Shown here piece after piece: positions 3,679 through 57,210 of a stretch of 64,000 bases of DNA. The notes below the pieces were generated by a model. The model was not told where the DNA came from and did no database searches. It was given only the letters and a program-made list of their open reading frames with translations. This DNA is from Pocillopora damicornis (lineage: Eukaryota). The stretch lies in assembly GCF_003704095.1 (NCBI RefSeq), contig NW_020844976.1, positions 62,001 to 126,000 on the forward strand, written 5' to 3'. The stretch's first letter is position 1. Each line of letters begins with the position of its first letter. A program made the translations under genes and the position numbers.

Positions 3679-3743
3679 GATCGAGCGTAATTCAAATGCA
3701 TACTAAATAAGGGCAGGGGATATATGTATATATCCCTTGATAA

Positions 3744-4403: not shown

Positions 4404-7400
4404 ATGGAAAAAGTTGCTCTGGTAGGTTTTTTGTCTGTCCTTATATAAAAAAAAAAGTGTAGCTGATCTTTTTTACTTTCAGATGAGTACATTCGTTTTG
4501 TTTTTTATTCAAGAGGCAGTCATCTGTTTTGTAACCTTCCACCTACATCGATTAAGGGGATGCAACGAGGCCTGTTCTGGATGTTTAACTTGATCCTAAA
4601 ACTTTCCACTTCGCGAACTTTCATATTTGTCGCAAATGCACATTTTGGCCGTAGGAAATGGCATTATGCGTTTGGTAGCCATGCTTGTCAAATTTCAAAA
4701 GCTGATGGTTATAAATTATATCCTTGCTTGCTACTGTATTAGTGTCGTTCGTGATTTTTGTGATTCAATCCTCTTTACTTTACAGGTGACAGGCGGTAAT
4801 CGTGGCATTGGCTATGCTATTGTTAAGAGATTGTGCAAAGAGTTTGATGGAGTAGTTCTCTTTACTGGTAAATTAGTTTCACGAGTAATTTGTCTTATGA
4901 GATATTCCAATTTTTCCAAATTTTATAATGTTGTCAGGATAATATTTTTTGTTAGTCTACATGTGAGTGGAATTGGCTGTATTATCTAGCAGGTTGAGAA
5001 TCAAAAGATATAACTATAGCCTTGGTTCTACTAGCTCGTGGACCTTGTTTAAGGTTTTTTAATTAATAGTTGATAATGATAATGGTGATGATGGTTATTA
5101 AATGATGTTGATGACAATGAACATATCATACCGGATCTTTACTTAACCAATGAGGGCTAAAGATAAATCACATGTATTACCCAATTTTTACAGCAAGGGA
5201 TGAGACTACTGGTTCAAAAATCTGTGGTGAACTTAATAAGGTATTAAATGTAACAAATATTCAGCACCATCAACTCGATATCACATCCCAGGACAGTATC
5301 AACAAACTCTACACTCACGTTCAGAAGACATTTGGGGGATTGGACATATTGATAAACAATTCTGGTGTCTTGCTCAAGGTGGGAACTTAATGTATTGTAA
5401 GGTATTGGCATTGGCCCATGTTAACCCCTTAACTCCTGAGATCTGATTGTTAGTTCTCTCTTCTAGCTGCCACACATTTCCTTGTAAATAAGTTCTGAGA
5501 ATTTGGTGTTAGATCAAGATAACAACTTTTACCTAAGACATTTGAGTATTCTCATTACCATGCACACTGGATAATGCATGGATATTGTAGGGAGAAGTTA
5601 CTTGTTAATCACTTCTGGGAGTGAAAGGGTTTAGTAGTTTTTCTAGACATTTTGTTTATCATCAGTAACCTTCATTTGGTGCTAAAATTTGTGCAGGTGT
5701 TTGTCCATAGAAGTGTAGAAACAAATAGTTTAGCAGGAGTGAAGCTCAAGGAAAACTGTGAGCTTTGCAATTATATCAGCATTTTCTATTATCTTCAATT
5801 ATATTTCAAACAAAGCCTTCTCCCAAATCAAATGTTAAGTTTGTAAATTTATTAATATAAACTGAGAAATATCTCTGGTGTTCCCCTGTTTTCGTTGGGG
5901 CACATTCCTCCATGTGACGCATTTAGACCAATAGCATTGGAGTAAAGCTATTTTATGGATAGCAATGAATAATGTATAATTTCCAGATATTTAATTGAGT
6001 TTAATTCAGTTTACTGGTGTAATGGGAGGATGTTGGGAGAACACAAGAAAAGTGTTGTCATGTTGAGTCCATCAGGAGGTTAGTCCCCTCCCCCCCCCGC
6101 CCTCCTGTCCCTTTCTAACATTTCATCAATATTTCCATGACATTCCACTGGTATCCATTAATTTTTCTGGGTATAGGAAGGCAATATAGGAGTAAGGAGT
6201 CAGAGACAGTCAAAATCAGAGTAAATATTCAAAGTTATTGATTGAATCCAACAACAGAAAACTGTGCCGTATGTTGAAAGAGCTGAGACAACTATAGAGA
6301 CAAACTATTTTGGAACACTGAACATGTGTAAGAGCTTCTTCCCTCTCCTTCGACATCATTCCAGGTATTCTTTCTAACTAAGTGATATTATTCTTTATAA
6401 CAGCTGTACAGAATTTTTACACAGGCCAAAATGGCCAGGAATCACATTTTATGTCACTGTCAACTTTGTTGGTTGAATAGTTCTTATTAAGTGACTGCAA
6501 GGTCTGTACTGCAAGTAACAGACCTAGTTATTCCACCTTCAGTTTATGACCCAAGAGCACTGCATGCTCAGCATGTTTTCAAGGAACATCGTAGTTCATG
6601 GTTTACTGTTTTTCCTTTTTGTTTGTTCCATTTTAACTTGTCAGGGTGGTTAATGTATCCTCTGGGCTTGGAGACTTGCGTTGTGTTTCACCAGCACTGC
6701 GAAAGAAATTTTCCTCCCCAAATCTAACTGTTACAGAGATTACATCTCTCATGGAAAAATACAGGAGGTACTTTTCAAGTTTATACGAGACAAATTAAAA
6801 TCACTTTAACCTGTTGATGCAATGATAATTTTGATCATGCATTATTTAGAAGTTGTTTGCTCATTAACTTGGAGTTATTATTTAAATTAGTGTCCCATGC
6901 AAGTTCAAACCCACATTCAGTGTGTTTATTGGTAATAACATGAATAATTGTCTGGCTATTCCACACTGTGATGTTTTATATTTGGATGTGGAGGATGTTC
7001 TCTTGTCTCTTTTTACTATTCTCTTTTGACTATATTTCATCATAAAAACCCTGCACAGATGATGTTAGAAATCAGTAGCAGTGTTCAGCCCCACTTTGTG
7101 ATCTTGTTGAACATTATTAATATTGTTCAAAGACAATATTCACATTCTTTCTACAAAGGGTTTTTCAATTTTAAGTCTTCCTCTCTGGCACAGGACAGAG
7201 CCATGGGGTGACTTAGAGTATTGCTACCTTCTCTATCCCTGGATAGGATGCTAGTTCATCATAGGTTAAACCCCCCATCCCCACCCCACCCATAGCTTTT
7301 TGTCAGATTTCCTAGACAGTTCCCCAGTATCCATTTCTACTTCAGGGTGTAGAGAGGGACTGAAAGAGTTAAGTGTCTTACCCAAGAACATAACACAACA

Positions 7401-8563
7401 ACTCCAGCCTGGACTGGAGGGAGACTTTTAAATTGGAAACCTTATTTGAAAGCTATTATGGCCACAAAGGCTTCTTAGTGGAATTTACAGTTACTCTTTC
7501 CCATGGGGTATTACATTTGCATACTGTCCTTTCAGTAACTGCACAAATGGCATTAATTCTGACTAGCATATATTTTCAATTCTGAGGAAATTCTTATTTT
7601 CTCCCATAGGGATGCTAAGGAAGGGAAGGTGACAGAGAATGGTTGGCCAGATGATTCTTCCTCATTCACTCCAGGTGAATGATATATATATATATATTAA
7701 TTTACTTTCTAAACTGACTTGAACACACTACAACTTCAAACACTATTCATCTCTCTACATTGTTGTCATAAAAAGTTCAAAATCAATATTTTCTCATATC
7801 TGGCAACAATCACAACTGAACTGATTTTGAAAATAATTCTCAACTCAGCTTACAGTGTCTCCAAGATAGGCGTAACAGCTTTGAGTATGGTACAAGCAAG
7901 AGAATTAAAAAATGATCAGCGTGAAGGAATATTGGTTAATGCTGTGAGTATTGAAAAGATAGACAGATCCCTTTTTCTGTGCCTAAATTGTGCTAAGAAA
8001 TTTGTGTGTTCTCTAAATCCTGTTATAACATAACGGCCAATTTATGACAAATTTAGGTCTGTCCTGGCTGGGTGCGAACTGACATGGGTGGCCCTAATGC
8101 AGAGCGAAGCCCAGAAGAAGGTTAGTTCACTATTTATATAAACTTTTTTCACAATTTTCCTTTCCATTCTCTTTTACTCTTTCCCTTTTTTTGTTTTTTT
8201 TTGTTTTTTTTTTGGTCCCATTTTCTTTCTTTGGCTTTCACTCTGTATTTTTTTCTCTATTCTCTCTCCAACCCTAGTGGCAGGCAACCTGCGATGAATA
8301 ATCATCCCTTTAGGAGAAGTCGACATTTTTCTTGTTATTCCAAGCTACAGAAACCACAGATAAGCATTCTCAGTGATGGGAAATAATGTCCTAAAGATTT
8401 ACCCCCATTTTTAATCCATTTATACCTGTCCAATTCTATTTACTTTTCCTCAGGAGCAGACACTCCAGTTTATTGTGCCCTTCTTCCCAAAGGAACAACA
8501 AGTCCTAATGGAGAGTTTTTGCAAAACAGGAAAATTGTCCCTTGGCTTGCAGGCAAATTATAG
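4404..8563 (+). CDS. CBR1: Carbonyl reductase [NADPH] 1-like SDR (CBR-A), 9 exons, ~282 aa
   Basis: Exons 4404-4421, 4786-4867, 5194-5378, 6258-6364, 6645-6767, 7610-7674, 7849-7943, 8057-8120, 8454-8563. Motifs: TGGNRGIG, LDILINNSG, RVVNVSS, catalytic YSVSK, VCPGWVRTDMGG, EEGADTPVY. The symbol indicates family, not one-to-one orthology. Confidence 0.9.
5421..5633. mobile_element. ~210-bp MITE with TTAA-CCC(C/T)T termini (piggyBac-like, non-autonomous)
   Basis: Starts TTAACCCCTTAACTCC and ends GGAGTGAAAGGGTTTA. Internal sequence is shared with copies at 8619-8831, 27537-27740 and 63500-63686. Confidence 0.75.
7200..7415 (-). mobile_element. Degenerate SINE-like interspersed repeat in a CBR-A intron
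   Basis: CCTGGATAGGATGCTAGTTCATC...GAGAGGGACTGAAAGAGTTAAGTGTCTTACCCAAGAACATAACACAA resembles, from memory, the reverse complement of tRNA-derived SINE cores. A more decayed fragment lies near 6065-6200. Confidence 0.45.
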
Positions 8564-18056: not shown

Positions 18057-20857
18057 CTTTTCCGTGACTGGGGCGGCGATCAAATGGCTGTCTGGTAAAA
18101 AGCTTGTGATCTTTGAGCGTCGCTCACCTGTCGACTTGCTGACGAAACAATCTTTAAATGCCCTGACAAGGTAATTTCAATCGGTTAGTTTGTTTTGCAA
18201 CTTCGCCAATTTAACGGAAATTGTCGTATATCTATCCTATTGATCTGACCGACAGGGGGTACCAAACAAATGTTAAGCAATCGCGTCGATAATTGAATTG
18301 AACACCTTTCCTCAAATCATAATTATTTCAATGCCTCCTGGTAATAAAAAGGAATCATTTAGTTTTTTTTATTTTTCGCCCTGAGTGCTCAATATCGCGA
18401 TATCAATTGTGTTTTTGAGGTGAAGTATTTGAATAAATTACTTACACGAATGACATGGAAAAGTCAACACGTTTTCAAATCTTCCATCTGTCCCATTTTA
18501 TATCTCTTTTTTTTAATGTTAAACTTACTACCTTAATCATCCTGAACTATCATTGGTAGTAACACATTATAAATAGGTAAATGAATGAATTAATATCAAC
18601 AGTAAGGGAAAAATCTGATTGTTTTGTTAAGCAGAACTTACTGCTGGCCAGAAGACAGCAATGTTACAAGTTGCATGCTGTTAAAATGTGTTGACTTGAA
18701 TTGAAGTAATGAATTCAAATGCACGGTGTGAGTTCCGGAATTGTAAAAAATGTTTGTGTTAACTGCAATTAATTCATTGTGCAAAGTGTTTTTAATTACA
18801 ATTCAGCTCTTGGCTGGAGATTTGGCAGCTAATGTTTTTTTCAGTGCCACAGCAACCTCAATTCGGCATCGAAAGAAGCTTGTGTCTGTGCCTTTATTAA
18901 ACGAAGTTGTGTTTGTCACTTCGTTTCCCAATTTTTTTAAACATTGGAAAGGGGTAAATATTCATTCTTTCCAACTTAATGGAGGAGAAATAATTTGATT
19001 TTAAAGTAATAGAGAAATCAAACGTCAGAACACTTTTTCACTAAAACTATCAGTTACAACGCTTAAACAAAAGTTATTCCAGATTGTGCGACAAAATAAT
19101 TAGGGAATATCAATCATTATTTGATTTATAAAACAGTTGTTTGGATAGAACCCACCATAATAACGTTAGGAGCAATAAGGCATTTGTAAAAAGTGGAATC
19201 AAAAGAATTTGCAAACTTTCTGAGCTTCAAAAGTTCACTTGCACCTTGTATAACGTTACTGACGTAACCTTGCTTTTACAACCAATGGAACTGTGATATT
19301 ATTCAAGACACAGTGAAACACTTAGACTACAAGAATAGATGTTAACTATCTAACCCTTTTATTGCATGATATAACCACTAACACATGTATGCAAAGTTCA
19401 TTTAGGCAAAGCACAGAAAACTGAGAGAAGGGTAATTTGTAAGAGTCGGCGACATTTCCGACGGAGGCGTTCTGACGCGGCACGCCACGGGATGTGGCGC
19501 GAAAAGGTACATTCCGCGCGTTTTTTCCCGCCAAAATTGTTATATCGAGTTTCGATTAGTTCAGTCTTTTCTATGCCTTACTATATTTAACTACCGAAAA
19601 AAAAGAAAGAAATTATGATTTTGGTTTCTTGATTTAGTCTGTGTGTTTGCTGTACCAACAACCTCGATTAATCTGCTTTTAAATTAATTCAAAGGTAGAA
19701 ATACATGCATGTGGTTAATAGTCCCGCAGTGGTTGTTACACACAGGAAGGTAATTAATAGTACCACAGCAAACCCACAGTAGGGTGGCTAGTTTTGTTTT
19801 CGTGGGACTTACGACCTGCACTTGCAAAGAGATTATCGGAAGTCATTCACGCCCCCTCAGTTGACGAGAAAAACTATTCATGAAATGAATTTCTGTTTCG
19901 ATGCTCGTGTTTTCAAGGACAATTTTAATGAATCAAAAGGTAATGTTATTAATGTGAACAAACTCTTAAAAACTTTTGAAGAGTTCGAAGTCCCTTTAGT
20001 TATTTGGAATCCTCTATGCCGTCAGAATTCAGAGAATAGTGAAAAATCTGTGTACTCCCAACAGATGTTTTTCTCGTGAAACTGAAGTAAATTAGTGTGT
20101 TTTGAATTTTCATACATTTCTTAGTTTACCGGCCTAAACGATGCGCTTCAGTTAGACTAATTAAATTATGGGCGACTTAATTTCGTGAAGGCAAAAACAT
20201 TTGACATTTTTAACTTAATAAACCTGAAGCCTTCAATACCAAAACATTTTGCCGAACACCCCCGCCAGACTTCAAAGGGCAAATGACGTAAGCACAGCCA
20301 TCCAGAAAGGAGGAACCCTGGGGGCGAGAAATGACGTCTCCGTTCCCAGGGATAGCGGTGCTTGGGAGATCTTGGGATGTAAGCCGACTCCTTGTGAAAA
20401 CCGAAAAAAGACAAAGGGGCTAAGCTCGTGCCAATTGTTTGAGGTGTAAGTGTGAAATTTGATATGCAGGATTTTCGTGGAGATATTTTCAAATTTTCAA
20501 TCAGCTGAGCCCATATCAGACCTGCGGATATTTGTATCACTTTTCTGAAACCAAAATTACTCCAACAATATGAGCGCATATTATTATTCCGTCTATTCAA
20601 CTTAAAGTATTCAAAATTCCTTTTTTTGAAAAATTTTCGGCATATTTAGGTTTGAGGGTAAAGAGAGAATTTTATGTTTTCTGAGTCAAAGTTTAGACCT
20701 CACCCCTCCCCCATTAAAAACTCCTGGATCCGCCCTTCAGTCGTCATGAATTTTCTCGGGCAAGATCACGATGGTGAGCACCACGAACCCTTTCTGTTCG
20801 TAAACATTAAAGGACGTTTTTCTTTCCAATTACATTGAATGAGGATGGTTTTCTTAC

Positions 20858-24000: not shown

Positions 24001-24491
24001 ATGTAACGATGTAGAGGAGATGAATTATTTTCCATAGTCTTTGCGTGCAATAGAGACAGGAGCCCATTCAAATTTTTTTCTTTAATTATAAAATATGCCT
24101 TTTTGGGCAACTGGTAGTCAATTAGCAAACGATTTTGGGGAAAGCCATAAAGATGTTATCGCTTTAAATCACGCCGAATCAGAGAGAGTTTAGATGCATT
24201 GCCTCAGGGGATGATTCACAAGTGGCTGTCAAAGAAATGACTCGTGACAGCAAATTATGAGCGGCCTCTAGAGAAGGAAAAATGATATTCGCTTGTGGTT
24301 ACACGCAAAGCCACTGAGAGACGCAGCATCTAAACAGAACCAAAAATCTGTTCGCGGCGGATATCGCAGCCATAAAAGTTGTTTTGACGATTGCGTCCAC
24401 TTTTAAGTGGATTTAGCACATAAGACTTGTGTCATTTAGATATCTTCCTCCCCAATGCCTGCAAATTAAGAACTGAAGGGATATATTCAAA

Positions 24492-26393
24492 ATGATCTGG
24501 ATTACACAAGAGAAGAACTGGTCGATTGTGGTCTTCATTGTGGTCGCGTGCTTTTCATTTGGAATCACAAACCTTTCTGCTACAATAATCGTTGAAACGC
24601 AGTATGGCGAAATTATCGGCAAAACGACACAGTTTTTGGATGAAAACGACGGATTTCAAACCGTTTATTCATTTCTTGGAGTTCCTTTCGCCTCGCCGCC
24701 AGTGAATGAACTTCGGTTTGAACCTCCCCAACGCCCAGCTGCATGGAAGCCTCAAACATATAATGCAACCTTTTTCAGGAACGTTTGCCCACAAAAGAAT
24801 TTTTCTTACTTTGAAAAATCAATTCGCAACGTTTGGCCAGAATTTTCGTGGGAAAATGACTCAAATGAAGACTGCCTGTATTTGAATATTTTCACTCCAG
24901 GAAATAAGCCATCAAATGCGGGTCATTTTCATCCGGTTATAATGTTTATTCACGGAGGGAGTTATGCATTTGGGACAACTGCCCGTCATACCACGCCCGG
25001 AGAGGTACTACCCCGCTTGGGCGTTGTCCTAGTCACGATCCAGTACCGCCTCGGTCCATTTGGCTTTATGACTGCTGGTGATGGCGTTGCGCGCGGAAAC
25101 TGGGGCATGTTAGATCAAGTAGAGGCCCTAAAGTGGATAAAAGAAAACATCGAGGTATTTGGTGGAGACCCGAACAGAGTGACCATATTAGGGGTGAGCT
25201 CCGGTGGGGCCAGTGTTGGCCTACACATCTTGTCCCCACTGTCAGAGGGGCTTTTTCATCGAGCTATAACCGAGAGTGGCGTGGAATTTTCACCATTTGC
25301 TTTTAATTCGGTGAAAAAAGCCATCGACAAGACGAACATCACTGCGGGGAAACTTAGCTGTGATACGACCAGTAGTAAAAGAATGATGGACTGTCTTCGA
25401 AGCAAAAGCGCTCAGAGTATCATCGACAAATTTGATTGGCGAAACACGGGGCCCATCATCGACAGGTATTTTATTTATGATACACCCAAAAATCTTCGCC
25501 GGTCTGGCAAATTCAACAAGGTTCCCCTTATAAGTGGCTTTAACAGCCATGAAGGAGCGCACAATACCCCCCAGGAATTTCATCCTCCAAGAGATATTAC
25601 GACTTCTGTCCTGAGAGAATTTATCAACAACTTCGTGGAAAATCATATACTGCAGGACAACAACAAAACCGCTGTGATCATTGAAGACGCAATTGAATTC
25701 CAGTACACTCCATGGAGTAAAACGCCTGACTCACCCTCCCTCCGTCAAGAAATCGTCAACATTATGTCAGACTACTACGTAGCAGCTCCCACTCTGGGGG
25801 TGTTGGGGATCCATAGCGCGCTTGCTCCCACTTACATGTTTGAGTTCAACCACAGGTCTGCAGAAAGCGATACAGATGCCTGGATGGGGGTAGCACATGG
25901 AGAAAACACGCCCTACGTGTTTGGTGCGCCATTTCTGAACAGTACTGCGTTGAATTTCACAAATGAAGATCGGAATATAAGTCGCTTAATCATGACGCTT
26001 TATGCGAACTTTGCCAAGTACGGGAACCCAACACCTCACCGGGTACATGGGGTCATCTGGGACAGGTTCAACACCGCTAGTAAGTTGTACTTACGTATTA
26101 ATAACAGATCTCAAATGGGAGCTTACTACGAATCGCGTAGAATGGCGTTTTGGAACAACTACTACCCAAAGATACTGAACCTAACAAAACCAGAATCGCT
26201 TACGAAACACAGCGGGGATGACGTAAAACCTACGGATAACCCGAGAAACTACACCGGGGAAGACGCAAGACCTACGGATAACCCGAGAAACTATACCACA
26301 TGCTCAAACATCGGTGTCAAACTATTCTTGAACACAGGCTTCCTCGGTTTTCTTTCATCTGTACTTCTTGTGTTGCCAGATGTCTTTATCTGA
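24492..26393 (+). CDS. Type-B carboxylesterase / cholinesterase-like enzyme (CES-B), signal peptide and probable GPI anchor, intronless CDS, 633 aa
   Basis: Motifs: FLGVPFASPP, EDCLYLNIF, HGGSY, catalytic GVSSG, SHEG, VAHGE. Hydrophobic N- and C-termini. Clear paralog of CES-A. Confidence 0.93.
   Translation: MIWITQEKNWSIVVFIVVACFSFGITNLSATIIVETQYGEIIGKTTQFLDENDGFQTVYSFLGVPFASPPVNELRFEPPQRPAAWKPQTYNATFFRNVCPQKNFSYFEKSIRNVWPEFSWENDSNEDCLYLNIFTPGNKPSNAGHFHPVIMFIHGGSYAFGTTARHTTPGEVLPRLGVVLVTIQYRLGPFGFMTAGDGVARGNWGMLDQVEALKWIKENIEVFGGDPNRVTILGVSSGGASVGLHILSPLSEGLFHRAITESGVEFSPFAFNSVKKAIDKTNITAGKLSCDTTSSKRMMDCLRSKSAQSIIDKFDWRNTGPIIDRYFIYDTPKNLRRSGKFNKVPLISGFNSHEGAHNTPQEFHPPRDITTSVLREFINNFVENHILQDNNKTAVIIEDAIEFQYTPWSKTPDSPSLRQEIVNIMSDYYVAAPTLGVLGIHSALAPTYMFEFNHRSAESDTDAWMGVAHGENTPYVFGAPFLNSTALNFTNEDRNISRLIMTLYANFAKYGNPTPHRVHGVIWDRFNTASKLYLRINNRSQMGAYYESRRMAFWNNYYPKILNLTKPESLTKHSGDDVKPTDNPRNYTGEDARPTDNPRNYTTCSNIGVKLFLNTGFLGFLSSVLLVLPDVFI
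26213..26296 (+). repeat. Two 42-bp in-frame tandem repeats in the CES-B stalk
   Basis: Encodes GDDVKPTDNPRNYT / GEDARPTDNPRNYT. Confidence 0.9.
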
Positions 26394-28086: not shown

Positions 28087-29654
28087 TTACTTTCTGCCAG
28101 AGCAACACGAGGTCGGGCAGGATGAGACACAGGTATGGGCGCACACTGGAGGACACGGAGGGGGTGGTGGTGGTGGAGGAGCAGGTTCTCCGGGTGGTCC
28201 TGGGGGTCCCTGGGGTCCGGGTGGTCCTGGAGGTCCGGCCTCTCCCATGGGTCCGATAGGTCCAACTGGTCCGGGAGGTCCCATTCTTCCTGAAGGTCCT
28301 GGGGGTCCTGGCTTAGCTGGCTCTGGTGGTGGTGGGGGTGGGGGTGGTGGCGGTGGTGGTGCTGGTGGCGGAGGCATACAACAGGACACCGCACAAGCGG
28401 GCGCACAGCTACCGGGACATCCTGGGGGACACGGGTTAGCGTTTCTTTTGTATGCTGCGGGAGAAAAACGAGAAACAAAAAAGACGTTTAAGTTCATTCG
28501 AGACTTCACAAGATATTGCGCTACTAACTGGTCTCAGACACTACTGTCAATTCCAATATTTGGAGTCAAAAATTTTAATAAGATTTTCATCATGGTCTCC
28601 TAAATAACTTATCATTGTTAATGCCAAAACTTGACATTTTACGAGTTCAAGGTCACAATATTTTATTTACCACGCTTATTGTGAAATATGAATTGAAAAA
28701 TACCCCATACCTTACAAAGTCAGTTTTTGTCTAGTTAAAGATGCAAACAGTCTGATTTATTTCTAGTTATATGATAAGGAACACCTGAAGACACTGTTCA
28801 AATTGTAATCATTTATCGATTAACTCAAAACGACTCGGATATCATTTGTAAAAGTTTGATTTTGGAATGGTAACCTAATTTTGGAAGTTGAATGAATTAT
28901 AAATTGTCCAAAAAATGTTTTCACTTCTCGCTTCACTAACTTGCAGGTTTCGACGGGAACCCGCTTTTAACAAAAACTCACCAACCAATCAAATTTCAGT
29001 TTTTCGTAAATTGAATCACTTTGAGGGTCACACAAGAAGTAAACGAAAAATTACAACTTCTTAAAAAGTTCACAACGCATCTTCGTTTTAGTGTTTTCGT
29101 AAACGACTGCTTGAAGTCAAAGTATTTCGAGAGTAAGTACGAGATAAATGTCACAGCTTCAAATATAATTGAAATACTTTGTTTGATGATTTAATCGTAT
29201 TATCTGGTTACGATACATTCACAACTTTGCGCTCCAATAATCAACTTTAAACAAATATCTTAAGGTTGATCGATCGAGAGCAGTTTTACTTTATAATTCA
29301 CCGATCATCAATTATTCATCACCTGGCCTTTTGTCGGTTCACAGAAGCGGCTTCTGAGAGGGATCTCTCATCGCCTTTTTTTAATATCTTCAAAATCTGC
29401 TCCATTTTAATCACAGATGAAATCCGTTCGGTGTAATAATTTTCCGCAGGCATAGCAAACTCATAAAGGTTATAACCATTTGAAATAATCTTTGATGGTG
29501 TGCCATTGCATTGCTCATATCTAGATTAAATTTTACTACAGCGAAGGTGCTTGACGAGGAAAAAAAATTAAACATGAAAATGTAACTTACTTGATCTAGC
29601 ATAAGTTGATGCTACCATGAGCGCTAAGCATCCTAGGATCAATTTAGACGCCAT
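28087..29654 (-). CDS. Nematocyst minicollagen (single N- and C-terminal cysteine-rich domain, NCol-1 type), 143 aa, 2 coding exons
   Basis: Exons 29654-29591 and 28454-28087. Signal and propeptide [46 protein letters not shown], polyproline, 14 Gly-X-Y triplets, polyproline, [21 protein letters not shown], then SGRK*. Confidence 0.97.
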
Positions 29655-43543: not shown

Positions 43544-45781
43544 ATGAAGATCGCTTTCGTTTGTCTTATATTTCTGACAGTTTTCATTGAGGTAATCTTC
43601 ACAATTAAGATACATTTACCTAGCTTTTAGTTCACACTTATTGCAGCATGATTTGAATTTGTTCAGCTGCGTAATTAGGGACCTAAAGCAGTCAGGACGG
43701 CAACGCTGAGAAGGACTTGGATTAAAAAAATGAATTTCTGCCTTTAATTAGAAGGTAAAATTTCCGCACAGCCCCATACTACATTATGAATTCAGTTCTT
43801 GAATAGAGAAAACAATGACAAAAACAATACATTTCCATTGGGAAAACAGATTTGTTTTACAATAGTATGGGGCTGTGCGGAAACTTTACCAATTAGAATT
43901 TCAAAAATGGCTGCATGTGTTTACCGTCTCATACGGCGCCAGTCCTCGTTGCCGTCGTCGTCGTGGTTTGCTCAAGATCGCTAATAGCGCCCAACAACCT
44001 GAAATTTAACTATCGATTGTTCGACAGATGACTAGAGCGGGCAAATTTCTAAAGAAATTGTAGCGACGAGACTGTAGGGGGTATTACAAGACAATTTGGT
44101 TTTTCAACCGGGTTGACAATGAAATTTAAATGGCCACCATAGAAAGTTTTAAAAGCTCTTTGCGGTGGCTAATTTACATGATCATTTCAGTTGATAAAAC
44201 AAAATTTTCGATTGTTTGGTCTCGCTTCTCTCTGCAAATCATTCTAGATTATAAGAGACTATAGGGCAAAGATTCGAATCCCAACAAAGCCTGAATGTTT
44301 TCAAGCTTCTTTTTAGCAATTCAATTATAATACAGACCACCTGTGAGGCTTGTTTCGCTATTTGTTGTCTTTCTGGTCAAAATTGAGTGGGATTTGTCAC
44401 CTAAACACTATTTTTGATTAGATGATGTTATTAGAAAAACCGTATACATTGTCTATTGAAAAAACTTTTAGCAATGATCAACAGAAATCTGAAGAACAAT
44501 TGCTTGTAAAAGTTTTGTATGTTATGGTGGAGGATTTAATTTCCAAAATTATTTTCGTTTTTGAATGTTTCAACATGTTGTACTTATATTCATGATTCTG
44601 GTCATCATCATATAATCATTAACATCATCATCATTATAATAAATAGTTAAGATTATTCTTGATGTTATCACCATTATTAGTATAATAAATGTTATTATTA
44701 CACATAATATTCTCATTTCATTGACATTGAAGTCCAATCTCACAAGAAAATGTTCTTAAATGATTTTGTATCAGTCCAATGGCCTCAGATGTTCATACTC
44801 AAGGTACAGGGGTGGCAGGTACACCACTACCTATTACAGGTGGGCAATGTTTAATTTTTTTCACATTATTTGTAAACTTTAAAAGAAATAAAGTAATGTG
44901 ATATGCTTTGATGTTTTGTTTCTATTTATTTGTTTATTTCAAAAGTGAAAATATGAGTCAATGTGAATATGGATAACTCCTATTTGCTGCTATTTTTTTC
45001 ACATAGTTGAAAACACTTGATGTTTTATTTGTCAGTCAAAGACCTTTAACAACAGCATTTCTGTTCTTCTTTTAGATAACTAAAACTGACTAAATTGGGA
45101 AGAAACATGTAAATTAGTGACATTTACATAATGTGCTAGCATTCATGATGATCTTTTGCATTTTGCTGTGAATTAATTTTTTTTTCAATTTTTGCTCCAT
45201 AGCTGTGCTAACAATGAATACTGTTGTGGATCTCGAAGTTGTTGTACATATGTTTATACAAGATGGTACCTCTGGTAAGTGCAAATCAAAATTATTCTGA
45301 ACCTACCTCATTGCATAATTTCTTTGACAAAATGATGAACAGGATGAACCTGACAACATTTTTCCAGGTTGTCTTGTAGATAAAGTTAGTTCACATTTTC
45401 ATTAAAATAAGACATTTTGCATATTGCTCAATTCCTAATAATTTGTTTTCAATTCAAAGGACGGGCATTGTGGCCACTTTTGTGATTAGTTTTATCATTT
45501 GGTGGTACTATCGCTATCGCTATCGTCGCGCACATCAAGTAGTTGTAGCCCAGGTCCGACCCTCTCAGGCTGTGCATACCACAGTCACTGAGAGTGTGAT
45601 GAGGGTACCTGCTGCCTACCCTGTGTACCCCCCACCAGGTCAAGCCACATTCATGCCAGGCACAGGGAATACCCAGTATACAGCATACCCACCACAAGTT
45701 TATGCTTATCAGGATCCACCACCACCATACACAAGTGCTCCTATGGTGAAACAAGGTGCTTTTGTGAGCACTTCTTCTTAG
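43544..45781 (+). CDS. VOPP1/WBP1-like (Shisa-like) single-pass membrane protein with PPxY motif, 4 exons, 168 aa
   Basis: Exons 43544-43591, 44775-44839, 45203-45274, 45460-45781 join in frame. Signal peptide MKIAFVCLIFLTVFIESNG, six-Cys domain LRCSYSRYRGGRYTTTYYSCANNEYCCGSRSCC, WYLW plus a TM helix, a basic stop-transfer segment, and a Pro/Tyr-rich tail with DPPPPY. Confidence 0.87.
43678..43981. mobile_element. PIF/Harbinger-like MITE in VOPP1-like intron 1
   Basis: TTA|GGGACCTAAAGCA...GACGGCAACG ... CGTTGCCGTC...TGCTCAAGATCGC|TAA. The empty site is visible in copy 1 at ~38740 (GCGTAATTAACGCTCAAC). Confidence 0.75.
43754..43890. mobile_element. Nested 137-bp MITE with 28-bp TIRs and an 8-bp TSD
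   Basis: TIRs GGTAAAATTTCCGCACAGCCCCATACTA / TAGTATGGGGCTGTGCGGAAACTTTACC. TSD AATTAGAA at 43746-43753 and 43891-43898. Confidence 0.9.
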
Positions 45782-47563: not shown

Positions 47564-50500
47564 CTATTTTTGTTCCTTCTTGAGTCTCTCCTCAGCTTCT
47601 GAGGCATGAGATCTTGTTGACATCACCTCCCATTCCTGAATCATTTTTTCTTTGAGGAATTCACCATGTGGTTTGCCAACATTTATTGGAAGCAAAGCAG
47701 CATATACTGGAGTCTCTGCACCTTAAAAAAATCAATTATGGATAATGGTTGAATTATTTTATCAACAGAAAAGCATTATCATGCAACACAGTATGCATGA
47801 CAAACTTTCAGTTGGTGATGAAATTAATTCCCAAAGGTTTGTTTGCTTGTGATGTAAATGAAAGAAAGGCATAGATCACCTTCAATTTCAACAAGTGAGG
47901 GAATGAAAAAAGTATTCAAACTACACATGTAAGATAACGAGAGGAGGTAGATGTGGGGAAAATAAAAATTCAGTTGTACCTTCCTCAGGAGATTTTGTTG
48001 CTTTTGGTCCAGCCATGTCTGTGCGTACCCAGCCAGGATCACACTGCAGAATAACGAAAAACATTTTTTAGAAATTGATGAGCTCAAACCTCACTGATGT
48101 CAACAACTTAACCCTCTCACTGGAAGATCTTGGTGATTCAGAGAATTTTGTATTGGGTCAACTAAAAATCCCCTGGATTATATTTGTCTTTATTCTCATC
48201 ACTTAACTGTTTAATATTGTTTTGATACTGTAAGGAGAAATTCTGTCTTGGTCACTGATGTGAGTTAAAGGGTTAAGGAACAAAAGGTAACAAAAGCTCA
48301 CAAAAAACAAAAAAAACACTGCAAGGAAACTGAAAATCATTTCAACACTACTGCTGCACTAAGATAAGTGTAACTTCATAAAAAATCAAGACTGAGTTTA
48401 CATCCAGGACAAAAACTGTCAATTTCATGTGTCCTTTATATGTAAATGTGTAAAATGTTCCCATTGGTTTCATTTTACAAACTTCAGGCATCCATCCCAA
48501 CCTCAACAATTAACATAGCAATAGCATATAGCATATATAACATAGCATTCAATTTAATTTTCATTAATTTTAGTTTTTCCTGCCACAATCATTTGTAAAC
48601 TATCTTATATTAGCCCTTTAGAACCTCCAAGTAACCAGCATCTGACTTTGCCTTGCAGCATTACTGTTGAATCTTCATTAAGATCATGAGAATAAAAGGA
48701 ATAATTGCAAATCTAAGAGGCTTAGATTGTTTACAAAATTCCCCTTGTCATCACCAAAGGGAATGTATAGAGAACAATATGGAGAATATATATAATTTGT
48801 AGAGGGTTAAAACTATGTGGTTGTCATTGTCAGGATGGGGGGAGTGGAAGGTCACACCAAGTCAATTATGAAAAAGACACAGGAATTGACAAAGGAAATA
48901 AACATTGTAAATTAAGATGTCTGTAAATTAATTGTCAATTGCAAATTATATTATGATGATTACATTTCAAATCACTTACAGCATTGATAAGAATGTCCTC
49001 TCTAGAATCTTGTAATGTATTCCTTGCTAGAATCTTGGTTAAAGCAATTATTCCTATATGGGACATTCCATAGGCTGGAAGGCAGAAAGAAAATTAGATT
49101 CAGGAATGCCCAGTTGTTATCAGTTATTACATAGAGACTTAAAATACTGTTTGAGAGTTTGCTTTACCAGAGGTTGACCATCCCTTCTGTGAGTGTGTAC
49201 CATCCTTGACATCTCTGGAAATACATTGTATTAAAAAGAGGAAATATTCACTACAAGAAACAAATGTCCTGTGGTAATATATAGATTTTATTCTGCTTGT
49301 CGTGACCATTTTTGCCATTTATAACACTTGCAAAATTGTATTCCTCACTTCAAATGAATTCTAATTATTCTTATCAACAACATTTACTTGTTGAGTACAT
49401 GCCATTATGGATAAAAAGCTAAAAGCCAGATTTTAATTACCAAAGTAAAGAAACATTTTATCACAGTAACACATTTAACTTTTGTTACAGTATACAAATT
49501 GAGAACACAATGGTTACCAGATAGCACATTCACTTAAAGTTCTTGTTTGATAAAGCAAATTAATAGATCAATTGATCAAGCACTTACTTAACAAACTGAT
49601 CCATCAAGTTAGCAAGATTTTCTTCGGTTAATGTTGGAGAAGAGAACCTCTTCTGAAGGTCTTCTGACAGCTGAGCCAAACCTCCTAAATGGGAGGAAAT
49701 ATTCACCAACCTGGAAAATCAAAGCAAAGATACTCTCTTAGTATCAATAATCCTGAAAGACCTGGAAGTAACAACTGGAAAGACAATTTTCAATATTTAC
49801 AATGGGGACAAACTGTTAGATGGAAAGGGGAGGGGAGGGCAGGACTGGTGCCTCTCTTTTCTATCAAGTGCAGTATTTCTATGCCCTGCCCCAATTTCTT
49901 GTAGTAAAAAAATGTAACACCCCCTCCCTCTCCCTCCTCTATGGCAAGCAATAGCCATTCTTAACTTTATGTTTGATGTGCATCCTACATACTTAACTAG
50001 GATCAGCAATTTAAAAGCATGATATGTCTGAGTAGGTAATTATTCAGATAGAGCGTAGAATTTTCAGGTGTGACATGCAATATTGAAAGATGCAAATTGT
50101 CTTACTCTGTTGTTTGATAGAGGTTAAAGGAGGCTAACAGCAGTAAATAATTTGATAAATGTATCTTAAACCAACCAAGCAAAGTACCATTGGTTTCCTT
50201 TCTGCATGGGAGCTTATGATCCTTACTAACCTTGCATGTGGTTTTAAAATTGGTGACAGTGCTCTGCACACATTAAGCGTACCATGAAAGTTTGTCTGGA
50301 TAGTCACTTCAGCTTGTTCTGGAAAAGGAACTGTAGATGCCCGCTAATTAATATTCAAAAACAAAAAAAACAAATATCAATACTTCACTTTTCAGTAGAT
50401 TTATCTAAGAGGGACATCAGTTTTTTAACAGTTGATGTAGGGACATAGGATAACCCTTTTATCCCTCGGAATGATTAACATCTTATTTCTCCTTACAGAG

Positions 50501-52172
50501 CTGCCCTTAATCAAGCATTTAGGTAATGAGAATAAAGGTAATGATCACTTATGAAAGGGGCTCTAGATCATAAAAAAAAATTCTCCATGTCAATACCATA
50601 GAATATTAGGGTGTAAAGAGGGTTTAACACCTAGCATTATAGCTTAATACCAAGCTTATGATGTGTCCTCAGGTATAGATGCTTTACAGGCACCAATGCT
50701 GAAATATATGTAATACACAATAATTCTGAGCTTGATTCTCAAGTATTTCTCCTCACAACCTAACCCTATCACTCCTAAGATCTCATTAGTAATTCTCCTT
50801 ACTGTATACCATACAATTCTTATGATTTTTCTTCAGAGAATTTGGTATTTGATCAACTTATAATTTACTTATAAGTTATAATATTTTCCTTTATTTCTCA
50901 TCACTTGTCCACTTGATATTCTATTGATATGGAAAGGAAAAATTCTGTCTTGATCATTTGCAGGAGTTTTAGGGTTAACGCTTGTTTCAACCCACCTTAA
51001 AAGCTATCCCGGCATTATTTACAAGAAGATCCAATCCACCATATTGCTCCATGAGATGTTTCTTTATTCTCTCAATGCTTTCTGGTGAAACAATATCCAA
51101 CTGATGAAATACAGGTGAAGCACCTTCAGTGCTTAGTTGTTTGACAGCTTCCAGTCCTCTTTGTTCATCTCTTGCTAAAAGCAAAGTTGTCAGCCAGTCA
51201 AAATGATACAAAACCTTCTGCAGGTAAGGATTATAGATTGACCTAAAAATTAGGTTTCTGATTTTTGGCTGGAAATCTTGTTAAAGTGAAGTACTGTATG
51301 CATCAGATTGGGCTGCTACTCTGATCCACATCAGGTGTTACCAAGTATAAGGAGTCTCATGAATGAGACCAAACAACAAACTTTCCCTCATCCTCTTATC
51401 TCCTTAGCACCAGCCTCAGCATGTCACACAATGCCCCCCCCTCCTCCCCCCGGCAGTAAATCTTAAAAAAATGTCCATACAGGAGAATCCTCAGCCTCCA
51501 GTACGTGAGCTGGGTGTCCTGTGGACTGATCATCCCTAAAAACCATCAGATAACAGAAAACCAGTGGACCTATAATTTTTTTTCTCTGTGGGCAATGTTG
51601 CCCTTCATCTGGATTTACAGAGTATAATGCAGTTGTGCAAAAGCCAAAAGAATGTTTAGGAACCAACCAAATGAAAAGTGCCCATTATTTAATTTCCATT
51701 CCCTAATTAACCCTTTTCACGCCCATGAATGACCAAGAGAGACTTTCTCCTAACAATATCACCTAAGGGATTGTTAGTCGATCCAATACCACGTCCTCCA
51801 AATGAACATTATAGGAATTGTATGGCCGACAGTAAGGAGAATTACTAAAAATCAGATCTTAGGAGTGAAAAGGTCAAGAAATTATTATTTTGTTTAGGTT
51901 AAGGTTATTTTAAGAAGAACTGACCACCTGTTAAAATAACAGTTCCAGAAAATTCTCTACACAACTTTTTGACTATAGCAAATCCTATTCCCTTGTTAGC
52001 ACCGGTAACCTGCAGATTGAATGAAACTTCGTGTTTTGTAGTTTAGAATACTATCAACAAAAAATGAGATTCTCGAGAAGGCTTTAAACTTAACGAATCA
52101 AACTGAATTGCCGAAAAGATTTCCTTATGTAAAGAGTTAAAAAGAATCACTACTCACAACCGCAACTCGCAT
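47564..52172 (-). CDS. Carbonyl reductase 1-like SDR (CBR-B) with atypical YxxxH active site, 9 exons, ~291 aa
   Basis: Exons 52172-52158, 52009-51928, 51174-50996, 50343-50231, 49710-49588, 49214-49168, 49074-48980, 48043-47980, 47721-47564. Motifs: TGANKGIG, LVNNAG, LVNISS, AYGMSHIG, CDPGWVRTDMAG. Confidence 0.9.
48108..48276. mobile_element. piggyBac-like MITE (related subfamily)
   Basis: TTAACCCTCTCACT...GAGTTAAAGGGTTAA. Similar elements lie at ~48610-48811 and ~50450-50628. Confidence 0.65.
50761..50978. mobile_element. piggyBac-like MITE (related subfamily)
   Basis: TAACCCTATCACTCCTAAGATCTC...GGAGTTTAGGGTTAA. A partial copy lies at 53474-53605. Confidence 0.7.
51707..51877. mobile_element. 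piggyBac-like MITE (related subfamily)
   Basis: TTAACCCTTTTCAC...GGAGTGAAAAGGTCAA. Shares CAGTAAGGAGAATT with the element at 54545-54733. Confidence 0.6.
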
Positions 52173-52254
52173 ATTTGGAGACTTTTTCAAGGTTCACTCA
52201 AAAAAGGATTGGACACTAATAGCACAAATGGGGATCGAGATGGTTGGTTAGGAC

Positions 52255-52681
52255 AGGGAGGTACTAAAACATGGAACGACCTAAAACCACCTAAAACCAC
52301 CTACAACCACCTACAACCATCTACAACCACCTCAAAAATTTCAACAACGACCTATTATAGGATATCGACCGAATTATAAAAAATATAATTGGCATGCTCT
52401 CGCATTTCATTTCGTGAGATGGTTGATTATACATGGGACCAGGGAGAGTAAGATTTCAGGGGGAGGTGGAGGTTTCGTTCCATTCTCGTATTTCATGTAC
52501 GTGACATGTTGTCGTTTCGCCTTATTTAAGACATTTATGCTTTGTTTTTGATAGTTTTAGATAGTTTTCGAGTGGCTGTAGATGTTTTTGAGGTGGTTGT
52601 AGGTCGTTGTTGAAATTTTTGAGGTGTAGGTTGTAGGTGGTTTTAGGTGGTTTTGGGTCGTTCCATGTTTTAGTACTTACC
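52255..52681. mobile_element. Mutator-like MITE with ~95-bp TIRs and a 9-bp TSD between CBR-B and CBR-C
   Basis: TIR GTACTAAAACATGGAACGACCTAAAACCACCTAAAACCACCTACAACC...CTCAAAAATTTCAACAACGACCTA, with its reverse complement at ~52599-52676. TSD GGTTAGGAC at 52246-52254 and 52682-52690. Confidence 0.88.
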
Positions 52682-52948
52682 GGTTAGGACTTAGTTAACA
52701 GTGGTTGTGGTTAAAAAAAGAAAAGTTCCCCATTGCATTTGTAACTCTTCTTATAACAACGTTAGCAAATAAATCTTAGAAATCACAAGTAGAACAAGGC
52801 ATTTGTCTCATTGAAAAGAAAGGCAGACCAAACTATCTATCCTCTCACCCCTCCCTTTTTTTTTGCCTTTTTGCGACCGATGCTGCACAAATGGTACCCA
52901 GTCTTTAGGCAGTTTCACACATCACCTTGACGAAACAAAGTGGTCGAC

Positions 52949-55900
52949 ATGTCTTCCTCAAAAGTTGCAGTGGTAAGCTCATTTAACTTTAGAATTTCAG
53001 TATTTCTCCTCGAATCATGGCCACCTATGCAGCTAAGTGCAAAACTTAGGTAGATGCGCGCCCCTTGATGATAGACCAGGGTACTGTTTGCGATGATGTC
53101 AATCGTGCAAAAACCTAGCTACATACCTGATATGTTACCGACTGAGTTCGTGTTTTGTGCTACACTAATGATATTTCAGTCGACAGGGACCACGCTTCAG
53201 AGCCCAAGTTTCAGTATTCTTATCGTTTATGTTTTTATGTGCAACTTTGGTATTTTAAGACGAGAACCATGTGGGAACTGAATTCAACAAAACTGAAAAT
53301 CGAATAATTTCTTTAAGTGTCATTCTCGATTTTAGATTTTTATTTACCTTGCAATTTTCCTCCTAAAAAATATTTAGCTGTTAATTCTAGCTTTGAGTGA
53401 TAATAGTACAGCTACAATTAATTGCTTTCTCTTTTAGTGGGAAGGTTGGGGGCTGGTTTATGAATCCATCAGTTTAACCCTTCAACTCCCAAGATCTCAT
53501 AAGTAATTCTCCTTGCTGTCTGCCAAATTATTCTCATTATGTTAGTCTAGAGAATTTGGTATTGGATCAATTAGTAATCCAATAATTGACATTTTTCTTT
53601 ATTTCTAATCTTGTAGGTTACTGGTGCCAATAAAGGCATAGGTTATGCTATTGTTCAAAGACTCTGCAAAGAATTCCCAGGAACAGTAATTTTGACAGGT
53701 ACACTTTTAGACAGAAATGCTTTGGTAATCTGATGTGAGCTGATTGGTCAGTTTAGCCTTGATGTGGTTGGCTATAAGATTCAAATGGTATTGTTTTGTC
53801 ATTTCTTCTTTAACAGCACGAGATGAGCAAAGAGGCAAGGAGGCTGTCAAACAATTAAGTGGTGAAGGACTCACAGTGTCATTTCACCAGTTAGACATTG
53901 TTTCATTAGAAAGCATTGAAAAGTTTAGAAAGTTCGTTCAGGAACAGTATGGTGGCATTGATGTTCTTGTTAACAATGCAGCAATAGCCTACAAGGTCTG
54001 TTGATGCCTTTTGTTTTCCTATAGTTTTCAATTAGAAGGATGATACAGGGGCTTTTATTTGGTGTCTTAAGTTAATCATTTTAACTTTTGTACATGATGA
54101 CGATGTTACTTTCAACATTTCACCAGAGTGGAAAAGCCAGACAGGAAAAATTTTGGCCATGTTATCCAACCCAACCTTTCTCAGTCAAACAATATACTCT
54201 ATGACTGCTACTTTACCTCTTTCTTCATTTTTACTTTTCTCTTTCTTCTCACCTTTCCATAAATTGAGCTATGAGACTTTTAGCAGCTCTGCTGGTTTCA
54301 TCTTGCACAGCCCTCAAATTGTGATTTTTACTGTTTTTCAATAAAGCAAGCCCCAGGCCATATGCTCATGTGTTTATTACGATAATTGCTATTTTTGTTT
54401 TCGCAGATGGCATCTACAGCTCCATTTACAGAACAGGTTGAAGTGACTCTGCGCACAAACTTTCAGGGCACTCTTGACGTCTGCCGTGCACTTTTCCCTC
54501 TTTTGAGACCACATGCAAGGTAACATCTCTTTTGCTTTATGTAAGCTCTTTCACTCTCAGGTTCAACCAAGAAGTACACTTTCATGTAGACAGGTGATGA
54601 GATTAAAGACAAATATAGACTAGAGGTGATTACGTTAATTATATTAACAGAATTCTCATAACTGATATCAGAAATAATGAGTGCCAGACAGTAAGGAGAA
54701 TTGATATGGAGAATTTAGGAGTGAAAGAGTTAATTGCTAGAAGCATATTCATGAAGTAATAATGTTGTGAATCTAACCAAATTTTATTACAACACACTTC
54801 TTTCAACCATAGTTTGCCAAATCTTGCAGAAAATTTTGTTGTCAGGACAACAACAAAGTTGGTCTGATATCACAAATCAATTCTGTGTGAGCTGTTTTTT
54901 TTTGGGATAACTTATTATTCTTGATATGAATTCTTATTTTCAAGGGTAGTGAATGTGTCCTCCAGGGCTGGACGTTTGGCTCAGGTATCAAAAGAAATTC
55001 AAGAGAAGTTTACTTCTCCAACTTTGACTGAAGAAGGCCTTATTTCCTTGCTGGATCAGTTTATGCAGTAAGTTTGCTTGATGTGTAACTTTCCTACTGA
55101 CTCTACCTTAGAAGCTCAGTATCTAACTTTGAGGATTATTTTAATCATCTTACATTTTTCTTTGCATATAGAATTTCCTTGAGTAAGTGCCCAAGCACCT
55201 AGTCATAATTTTAGTACTTATTAGAAGGAGAGCACTTGTTGAAGGGTGGGAAAATTAAAAAAATTTGAAACCTTTTCTGATTCCGTAGTGGTGGAAACCT
55301 TAAAAGTTATGATTATAGTAGTAGTAGAGGCAGGTTTTCCTTGCATCCCTGTTATTTTAGAAAGTGAAGGAAGAGGAGGGCACTTATTTGAGAGAGGTGT
55401 TTTTATTTGATATTATGGCCAAAGGGAAGGGCACTTATCAGGCTGCAGGCACTTATTCAAGGAAGTATGGTTTATGGAAAATTATCATATTTGTCAACTT
55501 TGAATTGAGAGATTAAAATACATTTAACTCATTATTGCTCTTTAGAGATGTAAAGGATGGCGTCCATAAGCAGAAAGGATGGTCCAACTCAGGTGAGATA
55601 TTATGGAATCATGCTGTATTCTCTTTCGTTCTTCTTGATATATTACATCTAGTTTGAAATCAATAGTGATTAATAATGGTAATTGAACTGAGTGGAGTGC
55701 AATTTGGGCTGAAATCATACGCATGATTTCCAAATAGAACAAGCACATAGTGCAAGTTCGATTTGAAATCACAAGTATGATTTCAGACCAAAACTGCATG
55801 ACACGAGGTTCAATTACCACTTTATTGCATCCATTTTGAAATCACCCAAATACAGGACTTGGTCAGTTCAAATATTTTATTGATGCAGTACTAAGCCGGT

Positions 55901-57210
55901 CTGAAATTAAATTCATCCATTTTTTGGGGGGAAAAAAGTAAGAGTTTTGGAAAAAAAGTTGCAAATTTGCCACATGATACTCTTTGTCTTTCATTTTCCT
56001 GCAATTTGATTGGTTACTTTAAACAAGCCTTGAAATCTGCTGGTTTTTTTGTTGTTAGTGTAGCCTCCTCATTGGCTGGGAAAAATATGCAATTTGAAGC
56101 AAAAAATGGTGCGATTCATGAATAAATTGCATCAATTAGAGCCAATCAGATTACAGGGACCACCAGTGATTTCAAAATGGGTGTAACAAATGCAATTATA
56201 CTGGTTGTCAGCAGTGCAAGTTACTCACATTTATAAAACTCCAGATGAGGGTAATTAGCCTTTAGAAACCCTTCATGCACTCCACTCACTTTCCTTATCA
56301 TTATGTATTGGTATGCTTGAGAATCTTCTATATGATGATAGAGTGCTTTTGATCCACAGCTTATGGTACATCAAAAATAGGTTTGACAGCTCTTAGCAAG
56401 ATACAGGCGAGGGCATTGACAACAGATCCGAGGGAGGACATTTTATTAAATGCTGTGAGCAGATTTCACTGATTATTTTCTCTGCTTTTGATTCAGTGTG
56501 ACCATTGATTAAGATTGATTAATCTTTCTATTAATTTATTTTTGGGTTGGAGTAGTGTTGTCCTGGATGGGTGCGGACTGATATGGCTGGACCAAAGGCT
56601 CCCAAAAGTCCTGATGAGGGTAAGTATTCAAAAAACATCTCATGGCAATTAAATTTCTCTTTTATTAAGGTAAAAAAAGCTGTCCAGTATATTGCCTTGC
56701 TTTTGGCCATTTTTAATTTCAGTTTTAATTTTTAGTTTCTATGTTGATCCCTTTTGTAATATCTTTAGTTAACAATTTTCACAAAATTGTTTAGTCTCAT
56801 GGGATATTTACTTCCAAGTGAGCCATTTGTTTAGATGCTGTAACTTTTGTATGTATTGAATAGTGTAGCAGCTTAACTGTTACTTTTTATGAACCTTTCT
56901 TGACTAAAGCCTGCTTAAACTATCAATAAATAGCAAAATTATTCAGGTGTCTTTGCTAACATTTTTCTCTATGGAAAATCAAAAAGGAAGTAATCAACAG
57001 AATTTTTTTTGGCCACAAACTGGGTAACATACCATTACTGTTTCTCTGATTCTTCAATTTATAACATGCAATTAATTTTTTGGATAAAGTAAATTGGACT
57101 TGTCTTCTTTTTCAGGTGCAGAAACACCTGTCTACCTTGCCCTCTTGCCACCAAATGTTGGCAAACCTCATGGGGAGTTTGTTGCTGAGAAGGCTGTGCA
57201 TGAGTGGTAA
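52949..57210 (+). CDS. CBR1: Carbonyl reductase [NADPH] 1-like SDR (CBR-C), canonical, 9 exons, ~273 aa
   Basis: Exons 52949-52972, 53617-53698, 53817-53995, 54407-54519, 54945-55067, 55546-55592, 56360-56454, 56556-56619, 57116-57210. Motifs: TGANKGIG, LVNNAAIAYK, RVVNVSS, AYGTSKIG, ILLNACCPGWVRTDMAGPKA, GAETPVYLALLPP. Confidence 0.93.
55673..56190. mobile_element. Interspersed repeat beginning with a ~150-bp imperfect hairpin
   Basis: TGGTAATTGAAC...CTGAAATCATAC...ATGATTTCCAAATAGAAC pairs with GTTCGATTTGAAATCA...GTATGATTTCAG...GTTCAATTACCA (55673-55826). The right boundary is approximate. Confidence 0.6.

Follow-up and report, generated by a model that had tools for sequence, protein, structure and literature searches.

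A six-frame motif scan located three CBR-like genes within the window, that is, the whole 64-kb stretch of Pocillopora damicornis DNA analysed here, and one of these, termed gene B, reads YxxxH at the motif which, as YxxxK, is described as a feature of the SDR family (PMC10288848). The question raised by this locus is whether gene B represents an artefact or decaying copy, a cofactor-binding protein without turnover, a weakened carbonyl reductase, or an enzyme with altered chemistry. The three genes and the principal features of gene B are:

4404..8563, plus strand: gene A, canonical YxxxK CBR-like paralog, more divergent (AYSVSKIG; exon 6 at 7610-7674)
47564..52172, minus strand: gene B, CBR1-derived SDR of 291 aa in nine exons, with 98-99% identity to annotated Pocillopora proteins and spliced RNA contigs
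52172-52158, 52009-51928, 51174-50996, 50343-50231 and 49710-49588, minus strand: gene B exons 1-5 (exon model)
49214-49168, 49074-48980, 48043-47980 and 47721-47564, minus strand: gene B exons 6-9 (exon model)
51983..52006, minus strand: TGANKGIG cofactor-binding motif of gene B, intact (Asn10, Lys11, Ile13 and Gly14 equal CBR1 Asn13, Lys14, Ile16 and Gly17)
49058..49072, minus strand: YGMSH motif in gene B exon 7 (TAT GGA ATG TCC CAT, Y188-G-M-S-H192)
52949..57210, plus strand: gene C, canonical YxxxK CBR1-like paralog of 273 aa with 71% identity to B (AYGTSKIG, Lys codon AAA)

Annotated Pocillopora proteins match those of the window with 98-100% identity, which, together with a collagen-repeat gene of the minicollagen kind, points to a Pocillopora-type coral. 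When the coral's own genome was searched with the Lys paralog as query, close matches were obtained only at these three loci, the remaining matches showing 25-42% identity.

The first-pass annotation of this DNA had contrasted AYGMSHIG in gene B with AYGTSKIG in gene C and AYSVSKIG in gene A, had described nine in-frame exons with canonical splice sites and an intact TGANKGIG, and had argued that a two-base change (AAR to CAT; AAA in gene C) is unlikely to be a single sequencing error. The motif scan recovered the three sequences as read, and the exon model confirmed the gene structure, all eight introns being GT-AG and the 291-aa frame open. The Tyr188 codon (49072-49070) is retained and the His192 codon CAT (49060-49058) stands at the position of human CBR1 Lys197; no variant letter was observed across 49058-49072 in the three RNA runs and the one DNA run aligned over the exon, so that the argument against an error in the two-base change likewise held.

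Concerning the class to which gene B belongs, its protein matches PF00106 (adh_short) with 117 bits against a cut-off of 26.6, and the classical SDR cofactor motif and Rossmann fold are present. The catalytic tetrad members Asn110, Ser136 and Tyr188 occur in all eight His-clade rows, while the YxxxK signature of classical SDRs is replaced by YxxxH, and Lys197 and the reactive Cys of CCPG, which mark CBR1 and CBR3, are replaced by His192 and C-D-P-G. The activity typical of CBR1 and CBR3 is NADPH-dependent reduction of quinones, prostaglandins or GSNO. Residues other than Lys occupy this column in complex SDRs (YxxxN) and halohydrin dehalogenases (YxxxR); gene B belongs to neither group, its residue being His and its nearest relatives CBR1-type. 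Atypical sensor SDRs of the NmrA/HSCARG type have lost the catalytic Tyr and carry degenerate cofactor and active-site motifs, while gene B has its Tyr, Ser, Asn and glycine motif intact and gave no NmrA Pfam match at E 0.001. As judged from its sequence and a structural model, gene B is an SDR-fold protein derived from CBR1 by descent and is not a canonical YxxxK enzyme. Since it lacks both YxxxK and CCPG, classification among the canonical carbonyl reductases would be inappropriate, despite its database name.

The very high conservation of the active-site Lys, which the first-pass annotation had asserted, is evident at both evolutionary depths analysed. Among the best 120 listed 90% clusters (of 2,134 hits), 116 have Lys, three have His (all of this clade) and one has Glu, while Lys is present in 153 of 153 more distant domains covering both the Tyr and Lys columns, these having been obtained from 146 of the best 150 50%-cluster representatives listed. 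The Glu case is a single sequence, P0125, a CBR1-like YxxxE protein of the frog Hyperolius riggenbachi. The Tyr is found in 149 of the 153 domains, and the four relatives without it (P0215, P0268, P0251 and P0310, with Val, Cys, Ser and Met, respectively), which are candidate pseudoenzymes by their sequence, all retain Lys and are therefore the opposite of gene B. As clustering at 50% hides variants inside Lys-led clusters, including the present clade, further His cases may exist. An exact-word search of the open-licence literature found no YxxxH SDR and no catalytic Lys-to-His change, and likewise no matching pseudoenzyme report and, among the matches listed, no study of coral gene B.

For gene B itself, the first-pass annotation had proposed three checks, namely whether His is present in orthologs or private to one haplotype, whether the gene is expressed, and whether dN/dS is below 1 rather than near it, and the outcome of each favoured a genuine gene. 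Histidine is common to four named species (Pocillopora verrucosa, P. meandrina, P. damicornis and Stylophora pistillata) and to a deeper lineage represented by P0019 (77% identity, dS ~0.9). A search with exon 7 retrieved the full-length P. verrucosa protein P0003, whose 90% cluster has 33 members; 15 are listed, including P. meandrina, P. damicornis and S. pistillata, and His is present in all 13 that cover the column, the other two being an intron 6 read-through product and a sequence that is too short. Such uniformity, together with the invariance of the codon in RNA and DNA runs, indicates that CAT is not a sequencing error. Histidine was also found in the four covering members of a second, five-member Stylophora cluster, in 3/3 sequences of the JGI cluster P0019, and in two of two further genomic contigs, which carry the His exon with identical intron positions. 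Contigs L006 and L007, from one data set, each bear a His gene with small differences between them, as would be explained by allelic variation or by a recent duplication.

In a tree of 31 rows, the seven His rows fall on one side of a branch with support of 100/99. The distance from P0019 to B (0.26 changes per site) is similar to that from the Oculina Lys protein to C (0.23), while the branches of the coral Lys proteins in the same tree are weakly supported and vertebrate rows nest implausibly among them. No His ortholog from Acropora, Porites or Oculina was found among the best 120 listed 90% clusters of the 2,134 matches, nor was a His found for these genera among the six of 65 region matches listed, in a search that also missed paralog C.

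Gene B is spliced in RNA from three studies with the His codon unchanged. Six RNA runs from four studies contain the YGMSH stretch, and the exon 5-6 and 6-7 joints were present in 3/3 RNA runs (three studies) and absent from the DNA run, the loose ends of these contigs matching exons 8 and 4. A wider RNA alignment, dominated by intronic repeats, added contigs in which exons 3, 4 and 5 are spliced together and others in which exon 1 is joined directly to exon 3. All of this RNA evidence consists of assembled contigs, whose depth says nothing of expression level. Six coding differences were noted among the RNA rows listed, three synonymous and three conservative non-synonymous. Intron-retaining contigs occur in several runs, with intron 6 (49075-49167) or intron 5 (49215-49587) retained, and read-through of intron 6 truncates the protein ahead of Tyr188 (P0014). 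The Stylophora His gene (P0142, P0034, P0145) has an in-frame isoform from which precisely exon 5 is missing (41 aa, with Ser136 and His137 among them), which is found as the annotated isoform X2 and in two Logan proteins. Part of the transcript output is, by reason of intron retention and this isoform, unable to encode the full site.

Genes B and C are arranged head-to-head with start codons ~780 bp apart. Between these divergent starts lies an inverted-repeat element (52253-52684) with arms of 56 nt (52253-52308 and 52629-52684) that are 93% complementary; it is high-copy in RNA contigs and MITE-like in appearance. Gene B RNA contigs from two studies extend to ~52302, just inside one arm, which may be a mere contig break at the repeat. 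The remaining neighbours are:

1966-3702, minus strand: NHL-repeat protein gene
12229-13924, plus strand: C2orf69 homolog
16233-18176, minus strand: type-B carboxylesterase, long single-frame
24477-26393, plus strand: type-B carboxylesterase, long single-frame
28087-28533, minus strand: collagen-repeat gene with Cys/Pro-rich ends, which we take to resemble nematocyst minicollagen
45200-45781, plus strand: final exons of a gene for a small membrane protein whose Pro/Tyr-rich tail carries a PPPY-type motif, in convergent orientation to the gene B 3' end

With respect to selection, comparison of B with transcript L002, a deeper ortholog, gave dN 0.114, dS 0.903 and an omega of 0.126 (bootstrap 0.080-0.181) over 265 codons, and comparison of C with the Lys transcript L003 gave an omega of 0.098, L002 and L003 being from different records whose host need not be common. 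A four-taxon codon model of 238 codons, in our own implementation (not PAML), returned an omega of 0.128 on His branches versus 0.086 on Lys branches (difference p 0.17) and rejected omega = 1 for the His branches (2dL 112) and for B alone (p 0.003). A burst of positive selection on the stem received no significant support, the internal branch being just borderline faster in this model (omega 0.23 versus 0.11, p 0.051), and change in conserved columns was barely more frequent in the His clade (8 of 122) than in the pocilloporid Lys clade (6 of 122). The codons of Ser136 and Asn110 have undergone synonymous change while the residues were kept over dS 0.9. The rough neutral chance of retaining a His codon at this depth is ~0.15 for one such site and 0.003 for three, the former value being too high to prove selection on His192 itself. 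Gene B is an expressed coral CBR1-type duplicate under purifying selection, and the sharing of His, the splicing and the dN/dS of 0.13 support the earlier view that the gene is intact, is not an incipient pseudogene and is functional in some way.

What that function may be was approached through the active site, where the following features of gene B are relevant:

50290..50292, minus strand: Asn110 (CBR1 Asn113, tetrad), kept
49689..49694, minus strand: Ser136 (CBR1 Ser139), kept, followed by the clade-specific His137 (CBR1 position 140)
48038..48043, minus strand: Cys219-Asp220, where CCPG has its second Cys changed to Asp (CBR1 Cys226, or Cys227 when Met is counted)
50341..50343, minus strand: Arg93, clade-specific (CBR1 position 96, at which the coral Lys proteins have Met, Ser, Thr or Val)
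47564..47629, minus strand: residues 271-291, a C-terminal tail that the Lys paralog C lacks, with E-x-M-S-x-x-S-H-A invariant in 8/8 His-clade rows

In CBR1, Tyr193 is described as the acid/base, Ser139 as holding the carbonyl, Asn113 as setting up the proton relay, and Lys197 as binding the nicotinamide ribose and lowering the Tyr pKa (PMC2741203); the same relay is given in PMC3662788. At 17 of the 21 NADPH-contact positions given for porcine CBR (PMC3960098), gene B has the majority residue of the coral Lys proteins, and the four contacts that differ (Ile134, His137, His192 and Asp220) are each fixed in 8/8 His-clade rows. Lys11, Arg34 and Arg38, which by the same contact list correspond to the NADP(H) phosphate residues Lys14, Arg37 and Arg41 of CBR1, are kept (PMC3960098), as are the substrate-loop residues Trp223 and Ala229 (CBR1 Trp229 and Ala235 equivalents). 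His192 is one of a clade-specific set of changes, together with His137, Asp220, Arg93 and the C-terminal tail, which the earlier annotation had missed. Basic residues of the Lys14/Arg37/Arg41 type have a role in NADP preference, and retention of NADPH binding by gene B is likely, to judge from its residues.

The position of His137 is an NADPH contact in porcine CBR (140 in CBR numbering; PMC3960098) and is variable across the family, His occurring there in one of 153 distant domains. Asp is found at the 220 column in four of 153, all with Lys, and the second CCPG Cys which it replaces is one of two redox-sensitive Cys in mouse Cbr1 (PMC4671598). The contact list from the simulation in PMC3960098, combined with general SDR topology, would place His137 and Asp220 beside the nicotinamide. 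Covariation of the two was absent among the distant relatives, the four Asp domains all being without His137. A further idea, that a water channel was sealed by Thr-to-Ile and similar changes on the helix bearing His192, was rejected, since Lys relatives often carry Ile196 (28 of 153), Thr199 (102 of 153) and Leu202 (62 of 153) as well.

Comparison with known systems places gene B closest to human CBR1 (PDB 1wma, 3bhm, 4z3d), with ~58% identity and equivalents of the glycine motif, Asn113, Ser139, Tyr193, Trp229 and Ala235. The match to 1wma (E 5e-99) has just two short gaps and includes the helical insertion after the catalytic Ser. An AlphaFold2 model, built from an alignment of 97 rows with P0003 (98% identity to B) as its first sequence, has a pLDDT of 96 (71-76 in the tail) and superposes on human CBR1 with an rmsd of 0.8 A over 270 residues (Z 44), its top six fold matches being CBR1 or CBR3. 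Gene B differs from the human enzyme in having His for Lys197, His at 140, Asp for Cys226, Arg at 96 and the 21-residue tail. The coral Lys proteins (C, P0147, P0146 and the Oculina, Acropora and Porites CBR1-like proteins) are 69-73% identical to B, and paralog C shares its nine-exon structure and is adjacent in the genome, but has canonical YxxxK, CCPG and no tail.

A C-terminal tail is also a feature of porcine testicular carbonyl reductase/20beta-HSD (PDB 1n5d), which has the same fold as gene B, the model aligning over 282 residues, to residue 286. In the porcine enzyme the tail reportedly sits close to the active site, where it alters kinetics and hinders substrate approach (PMC3960098). 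The porcine enzyme nevertheless retains YxxxK and CCPG, and its phmmer match to B stops at residue 272, so that no sequence kinship of the two tails is shown; they probably arose independently, and the modelled alignment of one to the other may reflect recall of the porcine structure by the predictor. A rare tetrad substitution is shared with Mentha isopiperitenone reductase (PDB 5lcx, 5l4s; related SDR fold, Z 34, 32-37% identity to B), although there Tyr is changed to Glu and Lys retained. In related plant SDRs, that single change is stated to switch keto- to ene-reduction (PMC4988501), which offers a precedent for altered chemistry in gene B.

In light of these data, we consider it somewhat probable that gene B has neofunctionalised into an NADPH-dependent reductase whose active site is rewired and whose substrate is likely different. 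In such an enzyme NADPH would be bound as in CBR1, Ser136 and Tyr188 would hold and protonate the substrate oxygen, and His192 would hydrogen-bond the nicotinamide ribose and pass protons. If His192 is mostly neutral, the Tyr pKa would not be lowered and the enzyme would operate mainly in the reducing direction, as the little charge on His192 should impair the oxidation of alcohols more than it impairs the reduction of activated acceptors; the substrate may consequently be an activated electrophile such as a quinone, an enone or a glutathione-linked carbonyl. His137 and Asp220 could form a substitute acid-base pair, Arg93 and the tail could reshape the pocket for a polar substrate, and loss of the redox-sensitive Cys might, more speculatively, confer resistance to thiol oxidation. 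It counts against this scheme that His is shorter than Lys and may fall short of the ribose; the absence of a significant rate burst, the lack of His137-Asp220 covariation in distant relatives, the ~0.15 neutral chance for a His codon and the transcripts unable to encode the full site weigh in the same direction. More tentatively, and more probably wrong than right, the clade may perform SDR catalysis without the tetrad Lys, through a new acid-base set (Tyr188 with His192, and His137-Asp220) on a CBR1 scaffold, with a new reaction or a coral-specific substrate, such as oxidation-proof detoxification in tissue that houses symbionts or the ene-reduction of a quinone or oxylipin.

The alternatives to the rewired reductase differ in how well they accommodate these observations. 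That the locus is a sequencing artefact, a private allele or an incipient pseudogene might be suggested by the intron-retaining and exon-skipped transcripts, but at the level of the gene this is refuted by the occurrence of His in four named species and a deeper lineage, splicing in three studies and an omega of 0.13 with omega = 1 rejected, and we regard it as scarcely credible; a working enzyme with altered chemistry is likely, on the residues retained, rather than a dying gene. Gene B might also be an ordinary carbonyl reductase in attenuated form, His being a tolerated, weaker stand-in for Lys and the chemistry that of C, carried out more slowly or in other cells as a split of dosage or expression. 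Its 71% identity to C, the common fold and substrate-loop residues and the lack of a significant rate burst are consistent with this, and Lys mutants of some SDRs retain residual activity, although an exact-word search of the open-licence literature found no K159A report of such activity. We nonetheless deem attenuation distinctly unlikely, since none of the other relatives examined has His at the Lys column, a number of two-base changes that brought polar residues to cofactor contacts became fixed together and are kept in 8/8 rows, and the new tail is conserved.

Somewhat less unlikely, but still improbable in our estimation, is a pseudoenzyme whose binding of NADP(H), and perhaps of a ligand, leads to no turnover and which acts as a carrier, a redox sensor or a regulator, the last possibly of its neighbour C, with which it is divergently paired. 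The lost Lys is otherwise near-invariant (153/153) and is needed for ribose binding and the Tyr pKa (PMC2741203), the cofactor motif and loop are intact, purifying selection is possible without catalysis, and a tail of the porcine kind may hinder the approach of substrate (PMC3960098). Against this, Tyr, Ser and Asn have persisted across dS 0.9, the Ser and Asn codons having changed synonymously, and new ionisable residues are fixed at the nicotinamide. CBR1-type proteins are monomers (PMC2741203), which also weighs against this reading. From a cofactor sensor one would expect the Lys that binds the ribose to be retained and the Tyr to be lost, as in the four Tyr-less relatives, whose pattern is the expected one if Lys serves cofactor binding; gene B is the reverse and fits a rebuilt enzyme better than a dead one. 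Given the retention of Tyr, Ser and Asn and the fixation of further polar residues at NADPH-contact positions, we lean, of the two possibilities offered by the first-pass annotation, towards altered chemistry over a pseudoenzyme.

The reach of this finding is limited to a single coral lineage. Within it, should gene B prove inactive, it would represent a well-conserved and unusual SDR pseudoenzyme in which Tyr is kept and Lys lost. In classical SDRs the YxxxK Lys is regarded as all but indispensable, and gene B beside the 71%-identical C offers a matched pair in which to examine the role of this Lys and the rebuilding of a proton relay. If gene B is active, it would point to a redox reaction specific to corals, and a different enzyme would lie hidden behind the name 'carbonyl reductase [NADPH] 1-like' that these proteins bear.
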